Source: a bacterium
GTDB lineage: Bacteria; UBA8248
Length of the DNA stretch: 64,000 bases
Reading direction: 5' to 3'
Assembly: GCA_965199855.1 (NCBI GenBank)
Contig: OZ241326.1
Coordinates: forward strand, 2,336,001 to 2,400,000
Numbering within the stretch: the first letter of the stretch is position 1; every line of letters begins with the position of its first letter. Below are positions 52,918-60,515 of the stretch, piece after piece. The notes beneath the pieces were generated by a model. The model searched no databases. It had not been told where the DNA came from and saw only the letters and a program-made list of their open reading frames with translations. The translations under genes and the position numbers were made by a program.

Positions 52918-52992
52918 TCCGGCGTAGCTCAACGGCAGAGCAATCGGCTGTTAACCGATGGGTTGTAGGTTCGAATCCTACCGCCGGAGCCA
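52918..52992 (+). tRNA. tRNA-Asn (GTT)
   Basis: Acceptor stem TCCGGCG/CGCCGGA, anticodon arm ATCGG-CTGTTAA-CCGAT, T loop GTTCGAATC, CCA end. Confidence 0.97.
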
Positions 52993-53062
52993 TGGGGGAG
53001 GGGGGCAACGGGCCGCCCATTGCAAGTTCTTGACTCCAAGACCGGCGAAAGGAGGCTTGACC

Positions 53063-54940
53063 GTGCTCTTTGCGGAAGCCAAAGATAGGATCCGGAGCTG
53101 GATTCGCCGCCTTATCAAGTGGCTGACCAAGCCCGAATATCCCACAGAGGCACCCGAACCAATTCCATCGAACGAGGCAAGGCCGGAGACAACCCACATA
53201 CTGGCGTCTCCCCCAACTACGGCATCGCCAAAGTCAGAACCGGCCTCTCCTTCCGACCCAGGCGAAGGCACCGACGCGGAACCCAAGACAACGGACGATT
53301 CAGCAAGCAAAGAAGAGCCCAAGAAAGAACCGCGCAAGATAGGACCGAGACGTATCAAGCCGGACAACAATCGCCAAAAACCAAATCGCCCCGCACAACT
53401 CACCCGCCCCTTCACTCCCAGGGCGGAGTTGCTCTGCCGCCAAGCTCGGGGTTCATCCTGGGAGTTAATTCTGTCCGTTCCCGAAGAATGCGGCATTGTG
53501 AAAATACAACATGACAACAACCCCTTGTCAGTCGACGAAAACGGCGAATGTCGCCCGTCATCATTCTCCGGCACCCTGAAAGTTGAATACAGCGACGGAA
53601 AAACTGACGAGATTATCCCATTGGTCTGCGACAAGACGCCGCTGGTTTTTAAAATGCGGAACGGCTGGCAAGGGTCTGGCCGCAAAATTAGCGGAATTAC
53701 TCGTGGGCACTTCATTGTTTTCACGCCTGCTGAATGGAAGCGAACGGGTCGCGTTCCGGTAGAAGCCGAGAACTGCGTGGACGCTGACTTCCGGGCGCAC
53801 TACTTCCATGCGCGCAAGAACGACGCAAACGATGAAATTGGCGGATTTAAGGAATATGAAGTCCCGTTGACCCCAACCGGATTCGAGTTGGAAGGTACTA
53901 GAATTTTCGATGATTCTGAAGATGGGGAACTATTCGTTGATACAGTTCCAAGGGTGAAGCCCGCGTCCGGCATCGTCTGGGCGCGCGTGGGCGAAGAGCG
54001 GCAGAGAGGCTGGTCTGGAGAAAATTTCAGACCCGATGACAAATCTCTCAAGAAAGTTCTGAATGGCCGCCAGAGGCGATTTTATGTCCGCGTCTATGAC
54101 GACGCGCCCAAGTTGATGGACAGCGGCGAGTTCCGCTATTACGCGGATCTGCAAGATATTCAGGTGAATGGCGTATCGTATTCGCAGGACATGCTGTTGC
54201 TCCCCACGTCGGACGGGCATTCGCCAACAAGACTGCAATTCATTGCCCGGAATGGAGAGCTGATCTCCCAAGATCGGCTGGAATTGAAAGGAAACAACCC
54301 TCACGCGGCCATTACGCCAGATGGCGTTTTGACAATAGCCCCACACCCGGATGGCGATGAAATAACCTTAGTCTTAAAAGCCAATACAAGTAGCGTGGCC
54401 GTCAAGCTCCACTTGCCGCGCGTCTGGTGGAGGCTTGAGCGATCAGGAGAGGAGCCAAGCAGGTGGGGCGACCAACCCCTAAATATGACGCGCGATGAGT
54501 TTCGAGATCGGGCCAATAAGAGCACCGTGATAAAATTGCGATTGCCTTCACGCATCAAATCTGCCGATGTGGGATTTGGTGATAATCTGGACCGGAGACT
54601 TCCCATAGGGGACGGATTGCCACTTGGGAACTTTATCGATTATACGGAAATCGACAATCCATCAAGTGAAGAGGTCGAACTGCGAATTCGATGCAATAGT
54701 GAAAGGCTAACTCTAATCCAACTTGCCGCTGACTTACCTGCCCCTACAAAGAAGCCTCTAACAAACAATATGCCAGACACTTGTCCAAGCGGCAACAAGG
54801 GATTCAGCTGCGGCGAATTGCGGAAGGCCAATCTCACAGCCGCCGATGCGAAACGCTTGCAATTACGTATCGACAGGCGACGCCGCAGCGAACACAATAG
54901 CAATATAGACAGGCTCATGGAGATTGGAAACGATGCCTGA
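53063..54940 (+). CDS. Large hypothetical protein with C-terminal eL13 (L13e)-like motif
   Basis: AAGGAGG RBS; tail GNKGFSCGELRKANLTAADAKRLQLRIDRRRRSEHNSNIDRL. Confidence 0.78.
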   Translation: MLFAEAKDRIRSWIRRLIKWLTKPEYPTEAPEPIPSNEARPETTHILASPPTTASPKSEPASPSDPGEGTDAEPKTTDDSASKEEPKKEPRKIGPRRIKPDNNRQKPNRPAQLTRPFTPRAELLCRQARGSSWELILSVPEECGIVKIQHDNNPLSVDENGECRPSSFSGTLKVEYSDGKTDEIIPLVCDKTPLVFKMRNGWQGSGRKISGITRGHFIVFTPAEWKRTGRVPVEAENCVDADFRAHYFHARKNDANDEIGGFKEYEVPLTPTGFELEGTRIFDDSEDGELFVDTVPRVKPASGIVWARVGEERQRGWSGENFRPDDKSLKKVLNGRQRRFYVRVYDDAPKLMDSGEFRYYADLQDIQVNGVSYSQDMLLLPTSDGHSPTRLQFIARNGELISQDRLELKGNNPHAAITPDGVLTIAPHPDGDEITLVLKANTSSVAVKLHLPRVWWRLERSGEEPSRWGDQPLNMTRDEFRDRANKSTVIKLRLPSRIKSADVGFGDNLDRRLPIGDGLPLGNFIDYTEIDNPSSEEVELRIRCNSERLTLIQLAADLPAPTKKPLTNNMPDTCPSGNKGFSCGELRKANLTAADAKRLQLRIDRRRRSEHNSNIDRLMEIGNDA

Positions 54941-57900
54941 AACTCGTGACATTGAGAGATGGGTTGATACGATTGGTGCTCGCTACGAAAATTATTTGAA
55001 AACCTCGTTTTACTTCAAGGACTCGAAACTCCGTGAATCGTTTCAACATGCGTTACAGGGTGGCCGCCTGCTGAAAGGGCCTTTTCCCGAACCGGCGCGC
55101 GACTTCAAAAAAGGCGTAGACGCGAGGCAACTGGCGAAAGAATGTTTTCCTGACAGGGGCGGCGCTCTACTTCCGGCATTACGGAAAGGCGCTTTGTATG
55201 TCCATCAAGAGCGCGCCGTGCGTTGTACTCACACAGACCAGCGGAACATCGTGGTCGCCACCGGTACCGCCAGCGGCAAGACGGAGAGTTTTCTCTACCC
55301 GATTCTGTTCGAGTTGTACCGCCAATACTTGGCGGGAGAACTCAGCGAGCCCGGCGTGCGGGCCATGATCCTGTATCCGATGAACGCGCTCGCCAACGAT
55401 CAAAGAGAACGCCTTGGCGAAATTTGCGAGCAGCTACGCAAGGAGGGTTCAGATTTTGCCCCCATTTTCGGACAGTACATCGGACAAACACCCGAAGATC
55501 AAAGAGACCGTCGGCGTAACGCCTCTACTCGGGAAGAGGAACGCCTGCCCGGCGAGTTGGTTTTCCGGGAAGAGATGCGGAACAATCCGCCGCATATCCT
55601 GCTGACCAATTATTCCATGCTGGAATACCTTCTTATTCGTCCGAGCGACAGCCCGCTTTTCGACGTAGACCGAGGCAAACACTGGCAATTCATCGTGCTT
55701 GATGAAGCTCACCAGTACCGGGGCGCCAAAGGGATGGAGATGGGCATGTTAATCCGGCGTCTCAAGCAACGGTTGCGCGATGGAGGGCGCGAAGATCGTT
55801 TCCGCTGCATCGCCACCAGCGCGACCATCGCCACCGGCGAAGGCGAAGAAGACAAACAGGTCGTCGCGAAATTCGCCGAGGAACTCTTTGCCGAGCCTTT
55901 TCGGACATCCGGCATCATTTTGGGAGAACACGAACAACAGTCACTCAAAAAGGAGCCGCGTCGCTTCCATGCGTTCGCGCGCGCCTTGGAAGGGGCTTTT
56001 TTGCTCCATGATGACGGTGAGGATGCGGTCATCCTCAATCGCAAGAGAGAGGTTGGGTGCCGCGCCGAGCCCTTGGAAATCGCGTTATGCCGGGAATGCG
56101 GACAACACTATTACGTCGGCCGGGAAAATGATGGCAAGTTGAAAGAAGCGGTGCGAGATCCCAGTCATCCGAAATTTGGCGTGGATTATTACCTGCCATT
56201 GGAAAGCGATAATGCCGCTTCTCATGTCTTATGCCGATGCTGCGGCCAACTCTCCGCCGACGGGTCTGCTTGCGATTGCGGCGACAGCGCCTCAATTCTC
56301 GTCAAGAAGTGCGAATCTCATAAAGAACATCCGGATCACCTGAAGAAATGCGAAGCCTGCGGCTATAGCCGCGGCGGCATCGGCGACCCTGTTCAGGAAA
56401 TCGTGCACGGCTCCGACGGCCCCAACACCGTCATCGCGACCGCCCTTCACGAGTTGCTACCGGAAAGCAGGCGCAAGGTGCTGGCGTTCGCCGACAGTCG
56501 GCAGGAGGCCGCGTTCTTCGCCTGGTATGCTCAGGACTCCTATACGGAGGTACGCGACCGCAATTTGATGTTGCGCGCTTTGAAGGCTGGGGCAATCGAT
56601 TCTGAAGGACTGTCCATTGACGACCTCAAAAACCGACTGTTCAAACAGTGGGAACAGTCTGGTCTGTTTGAGAGAGCGGATACCAGGGAAAGCAAGGACC
56701 GAAAGGTGCTGACGGCAATCCTCGGAGAAGCGTTGACGGACGAGAAGAGGCTGTCCTTAAGTGGAGTCGGTTTGGTCAGGTGGTTCGTCAAAATCCCGGA
56801 CGACTTGAGACCGCCGGCCTCAATGCTGGAGCCGCCTTGGAATCTAACGGATGAAGAAGCGCGCCGCCTTCTCGCATATCTTTTAGACGAGTGGCGTGTG
56901 CGCTACGCCTTGGCTTTGCCGGACGGTGCAGGGACCCCGTTATGGAACGACGTATCACCCCTGCGGCGGCAACAGGCTTACGGTCTGGGCACCCCCGGCA
57001 AAAGAAAAAACATCGCAGAATGGGGCAGCTCCCAATCCGCAATCGTTGGTCACTTCCTGCGCCGGCTCCTTATGCGAAATGGACAGTCCGGCAATGACGA
57101 CCATTCACAATCGATCATGCTGATGAAGGATGTATGGAGCGCATTGCGCGAGCGGGATAAAAAATATGGCCAAAAAGCCGACCAAATTCTTTCGTCCGCT
57201 AACACAAACGGGACATTCCGCCTCAACTCGCGCTGGCTGCGGACCAAGCTCGCCGAGCCATCTGAAATTTGGGAGTGCGACACGTGCGCAAGCCTGAGCA
57301 CCCACAACATTCACAACATCTGTCCTCGAAACGGATGCCCCGGAAATCTGTCGCCTGCCGGCCAATCACGGCTTGAAGAAAACCACTATCGAATCCTTTA
57401 CGAAAAACCCGGCCTGCCACCCACGCTATGCGCTGAAGAACATACGGCTCAAATCGAAAGCAGCGAGGCGCGCCAGAGACAGGATCGCTTCAAAAGCGGA
57501 CAAATACACCTCCTCAGTTCCTCAACCACGTTTGAGGTTGGCGTCGACTTGGGCGATCTCGAGGTCGTATTCCTCCGCAACGTGCCGCCGGAGCCGTTCA
57601 ACTATACCCAGCGCGTCGGGAGGGCGGGACGCCGAGAAACGCCGGGATTGGCGCTGACCTACTGCCGCCGCAACCCACATGACTTGTACCACTACGAAGA
57701 CCCGGAAAAGCGCGTGATAGAGGGAAAGGTGCAACCCCCAAGGCTCCGGATGACCAACGACAAAATCATCTCCCGGCACATGGCCGCCGTCGCTCTGTCC
57801 GCATTTTTCAAGAATGAGGGAAACGAGGAACGCTTCAGGAATGTCGAATCCTTCATCGGCGATTGGGAGAATCCTCGCGCCGTTTCGGACCTGAAGCAGT

Positions 57901-59201
57901 TTTGCGAAAACAACGAGGCGTTGAAGAATTCGCTACTCCGGAGCGTGCCGGAAGCCATGCGCGAAACAACCGGACTCAACAGCAATGATTGGATTAAAAT
58001 CATCGCCGGCCCGGACAGCCGCCTTGACCGAGCCGAGAAAGAAGTTTCCGACGACTATCAGCGCATGGAAGCGCTTGAAAAAGAGTACTCGGACAACAGC
58101 AAATATAGCGACGCGAAACGTATCAAGCAACGGAGGGATACCATCGCTAACGAACAAACCTTGACCTTCCTCTCACGCAAAGCCGTAATTCCCAAATATG
58201 GCTTTCCGGTTGACGTGGTGGAACTCGATACCCGGGAACTCGATACCCGGCCGCAAAACAGAAGTTCGGCAAGAGTATCGTTGCAAAGAGACCTGTCTCA
58301 AGCCATTGCCGAATATGCGCCGGGCGGTAAAGTCGTGGCGAACAAGCAAGAGTGGGAATCATGCGGTGTAAAAGTAATTTCCGGAAAGCAATTTCCGGTC
58401 AAGCGTTACGCTTACGACGATGCCCGCTATTTTCAGCAATGTGATGAAGAGGGCAATCTTCCAAACAGCAGAAGCAGAAGATACCTTTCTCCGGTCTTCG
58501 GTTTCGTGACACCGCTATTTGAGAAACCCAAGAAGCCGCGGGGACGAGCGCAACGCCTATACACAACACGACCGTTTTTTCCGGGTTTTGATGAAGAACC
58601 GGAATCCAAGGACCTGTTCGGGATTACGGTAACAAAAGCGCAACCGGGAAGCTTGGTCATCCTGTGCGAGGGGCGGAATCAGAAAGGGTTCTATATTTGC
58701 CGCACTTGCGGAAGCCACATGACGAAGCCAGCGAGCGCGCACAAGACGCCGGCAGGATCCAAATGTACCGAGAGATTAGAGAAATTTTCGCTCGGGCACG
58801 AGTTGGTTACGGATGTAGTGCGCCTGCAATTTTCAGACTTGGGCGACCAGTGGGACGCTTACTCCCTCGCTTACGCCATACAGCTGGGCGCGTCGAAAAC
58901 AATGGATGTGCCGGACACGGACTTGAACGTCACTATCACTGGCGACAAAGCATCGGACGAGACGGCGATTGTCTTATATGACAATGTTCCCGGCGGTGCC
59001 GGTCTGGTGGCGCAGTTGGAACACGAGGGTATATTTCGAGAAATGCTCGGCAATGCCCGAGAACGGGTACAAGGCGGATGTGGCTGTGACTCAAGTTGCT
59101 ACGGTTGTCTGCGCAGCTACCGCAACCAGTTCGCGCACCCGCACTTGAATCGCAAAAGAGCTCAAGCCTTTTTACCCGCCGTAGGCGTCGGGGCGGAATA
59201 G
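54933..59201 (+). CDS. SF2 DEAH helicase with C-terminal DUF1998 (MrfA/DruE-like)
   Basis: TGTASGKT, YPMNALANDQ, DEAH, SAT, QRVGRAGR, DNVPGGAG, CGCDSSCYGCL. Confidence 0.92.
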   Translation: MPETRDIERWVDTIGARYENYLKTSFYFKDSKLRESFQHALQGGRLLKGPFPEPARDFKKGVDARQLAKECFPDRGGALLPALRKGALYVHQERAVRCTHTDQRNIVVATGTASGKTESFLYPILFELYRQYLAGELSEPGVRAMILYPMNALANDQRERLGEICEQLRKEGSDFAPIFGQYIGQTPEDQRDRRRNASTREEERLPGELVFREEMRNNPPHILLTNYSMLEYLLIRPSDSPLFDVDRGKHWQFIVLDEAHQYRGAKGMEMGMLIRRLKQRLRDGGREDRFRCIATSATIATGEGEEDKQVVAKFAEELFAEPFRTSGIILGEHEQQSLKKEPRRFHAFARALEGAFLLHDDGEDAVILNRKREVGCRAEPLEIALCRECGQHYYVGRENDGKLKEAVRDPSHPKFGVDYYLPLESDNAASHVLCRCCGQLSADGSACDCGDSASILVKKCESHKEHPDHLKKCEACGYSRGGIGDPVQEIVHGSDGPNTVIATALHELLPESRRKVLAFADSRQEAAFFAWYAQDSYTEVRDRNLMLRALKAGAIDSEGLSIDDLKNRLFKQWEQSGLFERADTRESKDRKVLTAILGEALTDEKRLSLSGVGLVRWFVKIPDDLRPPASMLEPPWNLTDEEARRLLAYLLDEWRVRYALALPDGAGTPLWNDVSPLRRQQAYGLGTPGKRKNIAEWGSSQSAIVGHFLRRLLMRNGQSGNDDHSQSIMLMKDVWSALRERDKKYGQKADQILSSANTNGTFRLNSRWLRTKLAEPSEIWECDTCASLSTHNIHNICPRNGCPGNLSPAGQSRLEENHYRILYEKPGLPPTLCAEEHTAQIESSEARQRQDRFKSGQIHLLSSSTTFEVGVDLGDLEVVFLRNVPPEPFNYTQRVGRAGRRETPGLALTYCRRNPHDLYHYEDPEKRVIEGKVQPPRLRMTNDKIISRHMAAVALSAFFKNEGNEERFRNVESFIGDWENPRAVSDLKQFCENNEALKNSLLRSVPEAMRETTGLNSNDWIKIIAGPDSRLDRAEKEVSDDYQRMEALEKEYSDNSKYSDAKRIKQRRDTIANEQTLTFLSRKAVIPKYGFPVDVVELDTRELDTRPQNRSSARVSLQRDLSQAIAEYAPGGKVVANKQEWESCGVKVISGKQFPVKRYAYDDARYFQQCDEEGNLPNSRSRRYLSPVFGFVTPLFEKPKKPRGRAQRLYTTRPFFPGFDEEPESKDLFGITVTKAQPGSLVILCEGRNQKGFYICRTCGSHMTKPASAHKTPAGSKCTERLEKFSLGHELVTDVVRLQFSDLGDQWDAYSLAYAIQLGASKTMDVPDTDLNVTITGDKASDETAIVLYDNVPGGAGLVAQLEHEGIFREMLGNARERVQGGCGCDSSCYGCLRSYRNQFAHPHLNRKRAQAFLPAVGVGAE

Positions 59202-59257
59202 CCGAAAACACTTTCATTGAGGTTCGTTGGGCGGCTTTTTCGAATTGCAACGCCCCC

Positions 59258-60515
59258 CTAGTCCCGGCGGTAGCCCCGGCATTTGGCGAGGATGGCGCCG
59301 TCGCGCGAGAACCACTCGGCGGTGAAGCCCGTCCCCTTGGGCAGAAACTTCACCAGGAGCAGGCCCTCGCTCCTGCCGCGCCGCCAGCGATACCACGAGC
59401 CCCTGGAGTCCCGCCCGTCCAGTTTGAGTCCCGTCCTCTTGAGGCGGCTGCCCTGGATGAAGCCCTCCTTCTCCCGGAAGCCGGCGGCGATGCCCTCATC
59501 CCTCCCTTCGCCCTCGCAGATGCCGCGAAATCCGCGCCAGCCCGAGGCGAAGCGGAGACGGGGCGCGGCGGAGAGCAGGCGCTTGTTGCGCCGCTTGATC
59601 TTCTTCCTCTCCGTTCTGATCGCATCCTTTATCTCCCATTTGTCGAACCAGCCGAAGGCGAGGGTGTTGATCGCGGCGGAGAGCGCGTCCTCCTCCTTCT
59701 TCTCGCCGGGCGCGGGGGTTGAGCTGTCCCGGAACGTAGTAGCGCCGCGCCTTGTCGGCGATATTCCGCGCGCGGCGGACGCGCCCGGGCCCCGCCGGGT
59801 GCGTCCTGAAATAGGCGCGGCCCCTGCCCGGCCCGCGCGCCCAGAGGCGCGAGGCGGCGTAGGGGTCGTAGCCGGCGAGCGCCGCGTAGAGAATGCCCAT
59901 CTTGTCCGCCTCCTCCTCTTCCTTGAAGGAGTAGGTCGCGCCCCTGCCCTTCCGACCCGTCCTTCCGCCGGCGAGGTTGATGAACGTTTGCGAGGATACG
60001 CGATCGGAGACGTGGGAGGCCGCGTTGTGGGCCATCTCGTGGCCGATCACCGCGGCGAGCTCCTCGTCGTCCAGGTCGTCGGTCAGGCCCGTGAAGAACA
60101 CCATCTTGTTGCCGCCGAGAGCGGCCGCGTTCCAAAGCGGGTCGTCAAAATAGACGAACCTGACGGAGCGCTCGATCTCGTCCGCCGCGTGGCTCGCGGA
60201 GACCACGCGATGGAAGACGCGCGCGAGGCGCTCGTAGCGAGGGTCGAAGGGCGACACCCGCCTCGCTCCGGGCCGCGCCCCGATTTTTTCGGGATTGCGG
60301 ATAATCTCCCTCATCCGCCTCTCGGAGGCGCGGACTTCCGCGGCCCGGGGGATGAAGTTGGGCGAGCGCTCCCCCGCGCTCGCGCCGCGCCTGCCCGGGG
60401 CACCGGGTTCCCGATACCGCTCGAGGATCGCGTCCGCCTGCGAGATGAGGTCAACGAGCTCCGCGCACGCGCTCATAGAAAGCGAGAGAAGCAGGAGCGC
60501 CGCCAGATTTCTCAT
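59258..60515 (-). CDS. M48-family metalloprotease lipoprotein, frameshifted near 59714-59718
   Basis: Lipobox MSAC, NAAA, GHEMAH, EEEAD, THP; a second frame continues APGEKKEED... to TAG at 59260-59258. Confidence 0.72.

Follow-up and report, generated by a model that had tools for sequence, protein, structure and literature searches.

Organization of the locus

The stretch of DNA analysed here (the window) comprises 64,000 nucleotides (nt) of contig OZ241326.1 (positions 2,336,001 to 2,400,000) from a bacterium of the GTDB lineage UBA8248. Directly after a tRNA-Asn gene it contains an islet of two overlapping genes, encoding a partner protein (gene 1, P0001) that ends in a domain homologous to ribosomal protein eL13 of archaea and eukaryotes, and a compact DruE-type helicase (gene 2, P0002). 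In relatives of the partner the eL13 domain is exchanged for other modules, among them complete ribosomal proteins and a subunit of RNA polymerase. The pair is tentatively interpreted as an anti-phage module of the Druantia type III-B kind. Coordinates are collected in Table 1.

Table 1. Features of the islet and its tRNA gene, in window coordinates (aa, amino acids)
Feature	Position	Strand	Basis or remark
tRNA-Asn (anticodon GTT)	52918..52992	+	ARAGORN
Ribosome-binding site AGGAGG	53050..53055	+	7 nt ahead of the GTG start of gene 1; read from the sequence
Gene 1, partner protein P0001, 625 aa	53063..54940	+	Large family without a name; PADLOC DruH match absent
Gene 1, N-terminal helix (residues 2-21), then disordered linker	53063..53419	+	Confidence of the model, composition, consensus of relatives
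Gene 1, all-beta core, residues ~120-555, several immunoglobulin (Ig)-like sandwich domains	53420..54727	+	Model, Foldseek, conservation
Gene 1, eL13-homologous C-terminal tail, residues 577-625, net charge +4	54791..54937	+	Profiles and fold
Gene 2, compact DruE-type superfamily 2 helicase P0002, 1425 aa, nuclease domain absent	54924..59201	+	
Gene 2, RecA1 / DEAD domain, residues 94-303, with Walker A GTASGKTE and DEAH box	55203..55832	+	Pfam PF00270, E 1.1e-17
Gene 2, Helicase_C (RecA2), residues 838-904	57435..57635	+	Pfam PF00271, E 1.3e-10
Gene 2, MZB / DUF1998 zinc-binding domain, residues 1315-1396	58866..59111	+	Pfam PF09369, E 4e-13

An earlier note on the window, made from the sequence alone, had described a pair of overlapping genes of low guanine-plus-cytosine (GC) content directly after tRNA-Asn, and this description holds. 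The GC content is 0.48-0.58 over positions 53000-59000 compared to 0.62-0.72 in the flanks (means of about 0.54 and 0.68), the tRNA is recovered by ARAGORN with its end 70 nt from the start of gene 1, and the two genes overlap by 17 nt. The credible start of gene 1 is the GTG codon at 53063, which is preceded by AGGAGG, and the resulting product of 625 residues is matched exactly by database record P0003. A 660-residue reading from an ATG at 52958 was rejected as an artefact of the listing of open reading frames (ORFs), as this start lies inside the tRNA-Asn gene. No integrase ORF was noticed in the islet, nor was a convincing direct repeat of the tRNA 3' end found at its far end. A promoter scan gave 7 promoter-like sites against 2.4 expected, none of them upstream of gene 1, and in a terminator scan terminator-like sites occurred at chance level.

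Gene 2 encodes a compact DruE-type helicase

The earlier note had recognised in gene 2 a DEAH helicase with several Cys clusters and a DUF1998 end, and had suggested a Druantia-type enzyme; both assignments are confirmed. Pfam identifies the DEAD, Helicase_C and MZB domains, and 20 relatives show no variation in the Walker A motif, the DEAH box or four Cys clusters. In a PADLOC run, P0002 matched DruE3 (E 3.1e-154) and DruE1 (E 4e-154), at about 514 bits, with the DpdJ, DrmA and BrxH models far behind. The protein ends about 30 residues past MZB/DUF1998, with no domain following MZB, and neither a phospholipase D (PLD) domain nor another nuclease family was found in Pfam and NCBIfam scans. P0002 is colinear over its full length with a DruE-like helicase of 1559 residues encoded on a Clostridium butyricum plasmid (25-39% identity); alignment with the 2104-residue type III-A DruE of E. 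coli is confined to RecA1 and the C-terminal half.

An exact tandem duplication of 15 nt (five codons) was observed inside the helicase gene (window 58220-58249). Contigs from two other metagenome runs have a single copy, hence the length of this gene is polymorphic in the population.

The partner protein belongs to a large family linked to the helicase

In the AlphaFold model of P0001 the all-beta core has a predicted local distance difference test score (pLDDT) mostly above 90, and is separated by a 10-residue linker of low confidence from a helical tail. The core carries the conserved motifs WARVGEE and LPRxWWR, and R343 and R358 are invariant. The preceding linker of about 80 residues is rich in Pro, Glu, Lys and Ser (pLDDT below 50 for residues 23-105) and holds a semi-conserved IGGRR-type motif (IGPRR in P0001); the N-terminal region as a whole has a mean identity of 22% to 16 relatives. 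Foldseek searches with the whole model returned generic multi-Ig proteins only, and no DruH chain was among the matches in a fold library that ends at 2026-04-08.

A word-indexed search identified 119 relatives of the partner, and the family comprises 759 representative clusters at E<=1e-3 (310 when the threshold is tightened to E<=1e-30); almost all of these proteins are without a name. A tblastn search of P0001 against plasmids gave no match. The N-termini of family members are variable (P0044, P0054, P0128, P0239, P0240, P0065, P0026, P0156), and include long coiled coils with weak SMC-like or crescentin-like matches, helix-turn-helix (HTH) domains, DUF4389 and a weak match to PIN that is under its cut-off.

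Twenty-five loci encoding members of the partner family were found in a scan of one genome per species, in at least nine phyla, among them Chloroflexota, Poribacteria, Latescibacterota, Binatota, Acidobacteriota, Spirochaetota, Nitrospinota and Pseudomonadota. In 22 of these 25 loci a full-length helicase lies directly downstream on the same strand; the helicase neighbour is kept among homologues. The three exceptions are a locus with no helicase in the remaining 4.9 kilobases (L002) and two truncated partner fragments (L022 and L026). One genome (G056) holds two pairs of this type, the second of which (L059, contig G056:C111, 2023-10471, minus strand) has the identical 17-nt overlap. Across loci the partners are 27-51% identical, compared to 50-73% identity of the helicases to P0002, a difference in keeping with a sensor that works alongside a conserved motor.

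The position of the partner upstream of a DruE-type helicase invites comparison with DruH. However, PADLOC gave no DruH match for P0001 at E<=1, nor for any of 20 family members even at E<=10, while the E. coli DruH of 1119 residues, used as positive control, scored E=0 on DruH3. Alignment of the family profile by hhalign with single sequences, i.e. E. coli DruH and the protein at the DruH position in C. butyricum, gave a probability of 0.2 in both cases. An assignment as canonical DruH was thus rejected, albeit on a single-sequence comparison that would allow a remote relation. Judged from sequence, the partner appears DruH-like in gene position and in its richness in Ig-like domains, and is not identifiable as DruH.

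The C-terminal tail of the partner is homologous to ribosomal protein eL13

To our knowledge, bacterial ribosomes lack eL13. The stretch of gene 1 that the earlier note had likened to this protein corresponds to residues 577-618 of P0001 (54791-54916). Taken alone, the tail of P0001 is matched by the NCBIfam archaeal L13e model NF008914 with E 3.1e-10 (39.5 bits over 40 residues, the equivalog cut-off being 96 bits), but with the Pfam L13e model (PF01294) it reaches E 0.0029 and 17.9 bits, under the cut-off of 24.9. For this single protein, in which the tail is without a 6-residue segment that its relatives retain, the likeness is borderline; at the level of the family it is clear and far beyond chance. 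When a profile of the whole family was compared to the PDB, 70 sequences were matched, and the 60 listed were all eL13 (best E 1.7e-8). When the profile was built from 26 tails only, eL13 of Pyrobaculum calidifontis was matched with E 2.1e-15 and eukaryotic eL13 with about 1e-11. In one scan 18 of 53 family members, and others besides, exceeded the Pfam L13e cut-off.

The fold leads to the same assignment. A model of the tail only (pLDDT 83) was compared by VIA-align with 48,161 representative chains, and the top 8 were eL13 with Z 6.4-8.3 and a root-mean-square deviation of 1.9-2.3 over 56-60 residues; the next chain had Z 2.8. Foldseek returned ribosome entries in all of its top 50 rows, with a best E of only 7e-3, as the domain is short. 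The conserved core common to the tails and eL13 consists of G-[KR]-G-F-S..E...A followed by D.RR...H..N. The tail of P0001 is a true homologue of archaeal and eukaryotic eL13, with which it shares both sequence profile and core fold. In archaea and eukaryotes, however, eL13 is a free ribosomal protein, whereas here it forms the C-terminal domain of bacterial proteins of 500-1400 residues, and the curated full-protein cut-offs are not reached by P0001 itself (39.5 bits against the 96-bit equivalog cut-off).

The top PDB match of the tail profile, DotG/IcmE (E 1.6e-21), was discarded as an artefact, being the sum of 18 weak stretches of a repeated motif, none of which passes alone. Legionella DotG/IcmE contains short tandem repeats that are similar to the stretch G-F-S-x-x-E-L-x-x-A-G in the core of eL13.

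The tail is kept among homologues: a local hidden Markov model detected it in 179 of 237 family proteins, and in 173 of these 179 the match ends at most 22 residues from the C-terminus. It is conserved to the same degree as the core, with mean identities of 55% (tail) and 51% (core). The tail is basic, with a charge of +0.106 per residue against -0.038 for the preceding 460 residues (n=179). A word-based search with the tail alone gave no match among short proteins; among longer proteins it found three, and canonical DruH was not one of them. Among 301 genomes of the class of G053, two matched the eL13 model, one match being the partner itself and the other weak. NF008914 had no match in 14 control genomes, a set that includes the archaeon Sulfolobus acidocaldarius, so that this result is not evidence of absence.

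Such a basic domain next to an acidic core is electrostatically complementary to it, and in the whole-protein model residues 580-620 of the tail have a pLDDT of 93-96. Both features would suit an internal element, i.e. a tail that binds the helicase or the acidic core of the partner and has an autoinhibitory or assembly role, with no external ligand. We consider this improbable, since a latch is unlikely to be replaceable by unrelated folds (oligonucleotide-binding (OB), K homology (KH), double-stranded-RNA-binding-domain-like, omega) while the helicase stays 50-73% identical, and the 10-residue linker between tail and core is of low confidence.

Terminal modules have been exchanged repeatedly

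Where the earlier note saw an eL13 domain only, the eL13 tail, real as it is, turns out to be one of a set of interchangeable modules derived from ribosomal proteins and RNA polymerase subunits, which changes what needs to be explained. Of the 58 family proteins without an eL13 tail, 50 were scanned against Pfam and NCBIfam, and the other 8 look truncated. Complete ribosomal proteins were found as tails in several of them: S6 in P0192 (E 6.6e-25, positions 1-90 of the 90 in the profile), S17 in locus L014 (E 2.7e-27, positions 1-68 of 68), and in P0241 an S1 with all six domains, those at the N-terminus included, which scores 690 bits where the equivalog cut-off is 524 bits and for which the match starts at model position about 13-27. 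An S5 tail with both N and C domains occurs in five proteins and in locus L024, and with the C domain only in a sixth protein (P0119). The S17 tail of L014 scores 100.7 bits, compared to 85.8 bits for the S17 of its host. The genomes with S17 and S5 tails retain their own S17 and S5, to which the tails are 46% (S17) and 34% (S5) identical.

Other modules come from the transcription machinery. Two proteins have a NusA-type KH tail, and the tail of P0238 matches the NusA C-terminal repeat (E 1.7e-7, under its cut-off). In G024 the tail of the partner is the omega subunit of RNA polymerase (Rpb6 family; E 6.5e-8, 32.9 bits against a cut-off of 26 bits), with a helicase downstream. The partner of the second pair of G056 (1408 residues) has an N-terminal module with sigma-70 regions 2, 3 and 4 and in addition region 1.2, and ends in eL13.

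In a tree of 20 helicases, those whose partners have other tails nest inside groups with eL13-tailed partners. Three partners with an unassigned tail, for instance, group with the eL13-tailed L005 with support 100/100 and branches of about 0.1. The eL13 label requires four changes on this tree, of which at least three are forced by well-supported branches. It follows that the tail was repeatedly replaced while the accompanying helicase stayed almost the same.

Distribution and probable horizontal acquisition

In a relative of the same genus (G034), whose flanks are 82-91% identical, the gap from the tRNA to the downstream flank is 989 bp, compared to 6263 bp in the window, i.e. an empty-type site. 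A sponge metagenome contig from a different study spans 52937-59300, differing at 42 letters and lacking 15 nt in a single deletion, and the islet thus exists at the same site outside the source sample. Full-length partners were found in only two of 51 genomes of the phylum, the other being G024, of the same genus, and the helicase tree does not follow phyla. Low GC content, sporadic occurrence within the phylum, the empty-type site and the disagreement of tree and phyla all fit an accessory pair that has been acquired horizontally.

The same observations bear on the question whether the pair serves in defence. As an alternative, gene 2 could encode a helicase of the MrfA/YprA kind that serves in housekeeping or repair, with gene 1 providing an accessory protein linked to RNA, given that the YprA family includes repair helicases (PMC12458937). 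This is highly improbable in our view, because P0002 scores about 514 bits with the DruE model of PADLOC, whereas the best NCBIfam model (TIGR03817) reaches 120 bits against a cut-off of 874 bits, and because the pair is sporadic (2/51 genomes of the phylum), sits in a low-GC islet adjoining a tRNA and shows transfer across phyla on the helicase tree.

A second kind of bacterial protein with an eL13 tail (260-460 residues; loci L029-L040) was observed in genomes of the same genus, none being present in this window or genome. These proteins have a short basic N-terminal helix, a long acidic repetitive region rich in Glu, Pro, Ser and Asp, and a C-terminal eL13 domain that exceeds the Pfam cut-off (30-33 bits). 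They occur in 18 of the 22 other genomes of the genus and in none of 28 phylum genomes outside it. A tRNA-Asn(GTT) is found 120-900 nt from the gene, in convergent orientation, in 11 of the 12 loci inspected; this is the tRNA locus that holds the Druantia-like pair in the present genome. By its domain layout such a protein looks like a partner without the Ig core.

Relation to known defence systems

The earlier note had suggested a possibly undescribed Druantia-like module. This is only partly so, as a compact two-gene kind is already in print: Druantia III-B, or 'type III-like', was described as a separate branch with mostly nuclease-free helicases (Bell et al. 2025, PMC12458937; bioRxiv 2026.05.13.724758). 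As a kind, therefore, the module is not undescribed. The pair fits the published description: its two genes form an operon in which the partner precedes a nuclease-free, DruE-type YprA helicase that ends at MZB and is colinear with a compact plasmid-borne DruE-like helicase. What sets the pair apart is the partner, which matches no DruH model and neither of two DruH-position proteins, and which carries modules of ribosome and polymerase subunits, whereas DruH has been described as lacking annotated domains (bioRxiv 2026.05.13.724758). In the literature searched there was no mention of the partner family or of ribosomal or polymerase-subunit tails on Druantia partners, and the terms 'L13e' and 'ribosomal' are absent from the searched text of PMC12458937, bioRxiv 2026.05.12.722862 and bioRxiv 2026.05.13.724758; domain calls for III-B may be held in supplementary tables.

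With Druantia III-A, the DruH-DruE pair of E. coli, the present pair has in common the helicase core, the zinc ribbons, MZB and a partner consisting largely of Ig/Fn3-like beta domains. The III-A DruE, however, has about 2100 residues with C-terminal PLD nuclease domains, against 1425 residues and no such domain in P0002, and the III-A DruH has 1119 residues and scores E=0 on DruH3 in PADLOC, where P0001 has no score (hhalign probability 0.2). Solved structures of E. coli DruH-DruE include PDB 9TUD (cited in bioRxiv 2026.05.13.724758). Published work on type III (bioRxiv 2026) characterises E. coli DruE as a 3'-to-5' helicase that requires exposed single-stranded DNA (ssDNA), and DruH as an Ig-rich protein that binds ssDNA at an interface formed with its own C-terminal domain (bioRxiv 2026.05.12.722862). 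Canonical DruH has also been proposed to sense phage proteins (bioRxiv 2026.05.12.724681; PMC13316683). A DruH-DruE pair of M. smegmatis that was tested has a gene overlap of 17 bp, the length found in the present pair; there, DruH and DruE interact with each other, and activation is by a phage tail protein (PMC13316683).

A functional analogy exists with the CoCoNuT systems, defence systems whose accessory domains have been predicted to interact with translation components (Bell et al., PMC10542128). Their own core enzymes are of the McrBC type and their domains are SmpB-like OB, YTH and Hsp70; the examined text of PMC10542128 mentions no whole ribosomal proteins.

Proposed function of the pair and its terminal modules

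We tentatively propose that the pair is a horizontally acquired, two-gene anti-phage module of the Druantia III-B-like kind, in which gene 2 would be the motor and gene 1 a sensor or adaptor with a nucleic-acid-binding tail. By analogy with E. coli DruE, the nuclease-free motor would load on exposed ssDNA and unwind phage DNA in the 3'-to-5' direction. Gene 1, probably translationally coupled to gene 2, would bind the helicase and act as sensor or adaptor, its acidic Ig-like array possibly providing a recognition surface, as has been proposed for DruH. The basic eL13-fold module may bind RNA, ssDNA or hybrids, and would thereby keep the complex on, or direct it to, the nucleic acid on which the helicase acts. 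In this picture the domain identities, the homology and fold of the eL13 module, the linkage of the two genes and the exchange of tails are observed, whereas a role in defence, contact between partner and helicase and the ligand of the tail are inferred.

With some reserve, the eL13 module is most simply regarded as a nucleic-acid-binding end because most of the alternative tails (S1, S17, S5, S6, NusA KH) are classic RNA or ssDNA binders. The ssDNA binding of E. coli DruH at an interface that involves its C-terminal domain (bioRxiv 2026.05.12.722862) provides a parallel from the literature. Nucleic-acid binding accounts for most tails, i.e. S1, S17, KH, S5, S6 and the basic and zinc-ribbon tails.

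Several observations weigh against this interpretation. The partner has no detectable sequence relation to canonical DruH, so that the DruH analogy is drawn from gene position and Ig-like folds. Neither protein of the pair has a recognisable nuclease, which bears on how infection would be stopped. The omega tail and the N-terminal sigma-70 module bind the polymerase core and are not nucleic-acid-binder modules. Plain nucleic-acid binding does not explain a tail that is a whole S1 including its N-terminal domains, nor does it cover, more generally, that whole subunits rather than bare folds were taken. Finally, tail groups of 8 proteins (with an HTH-like look), 5 proteins and others found no match in Pfam, NCBIfam, a protein atlas or PDB profile searches.

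Since omega, sigma-70 and the capture of whole subunits are left unexplained by nucleic-acid binding, two other readings of the tails remain as candidates. The terminal modules could dock the partner into the transcription-translation machinery of the host in place of a peripheral subunit, the sites being those of S1, S6, S17 and S5 on the 30S subunit and of omega and sigma on RNA polymerase, with the NusA pieces lying between both. The helicase system would then ride on expressed DNA and polysomes, or be freed when a phage shuts down host expression. In agreement with docking, the exchanged modules are complete subunits (S1, S17, S6, and S5 with both domains) and not isolated RNA-binding folds, omega (32.9 bits) and sigma-70 regions 2-3-4 bind the polymerase core, and the host retains its own copies of S17 and S5. 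We nevertheless consider docking unlikely: the commonest tail, eL13 (179/237), is without a known site on the bacterial ribosome, identity to the proteins of the host is no more than 46% for the S17 tail and 34% for the S5 tail, and the modules are fused via their N-termini to about 500-900 residues, which may block native assembly.

Alternatively, the modules could be integrated decoys that imitate host expression proteins targeted by phage take-over factors, with engagement of the bait switching the helicase on, in parallel to the integrated decoys of plant nucleotide-binding leucine-rich-repeat (NLR) immune receptors. S1, S6, NusA, sigma-70 and the subunits of RNA polymerase are known targets of phage-encoded modifiers and binders, which counts in favour of such a role. 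The partners combine a conserved core with a terminal domain that varies, has been swapped time and again and comes from the core machinery of the host, a pattern in keeping with a decoy; other tails nest in eL13 clades at 100/100 support with at least three changes of the eL13 label; the proposal that canonical DruH senses phage proteins (bioRxiv 2026.05.12.724681; PMC13316683) points the same way. Against this stands that most host bacteria have no eL13 to imitate (two matches in 301 genomes of one class, one being the partner), that the S17 and S5 tails are, as a matter of judgement and not of a computed comparison, no closer to the host proteins than is typical for S17 and S5 of another phylum, and that no phage factor is known for these uncultured hosts. 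A decoy function is therefore quite unlikely in our estimate. eL13 fits both docking and decoy poorly, because these bacteria are without an eL13 of their own.

More broadly, the partner family could consist of immune sensors with interchangeable ends from the expression machinery, seated on the ribosome or RNA polymerase or baiting phage take-over proteins, a proposition that we regard as doubtful and put forward as speculation. A Druantia III-B-like module with a nucleic-acid-binding tail remains the reading that we prefer.

Implications

The partner family and its tails were absent from the literature searched; the kind of module, a Druantia III-B-like pair, was already known. How Druantia senses infection is under debate, as DruH has been proposed to bind ssDNA, to serve as a scaffold or to sense phage proteins (in the parts of the 2026 bioRxiv papers cited above). 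The family offers a natural experiment on this question: the helicase is nearly constant while the terminal module is swapped among well-understood proteins with known ligands and mutants, which makes the sensing or targeting step directly testable. It also provides a clear case of an archaeal and eukaryotic ribosomal protein domain recruited into bacterial proteins, and extends the range of defence-system domains to entire ribosomal proteins and polymerase subunits. If the partners were sensors with bait ends, prokaryotes would have an equivalent of the integrated decoys known from plant NLR receptors. If the terminal modules do act as sensor ends, a Druantia helicase would be coupled to the surveillance of transcription and translation, and not to DNA ends alone.

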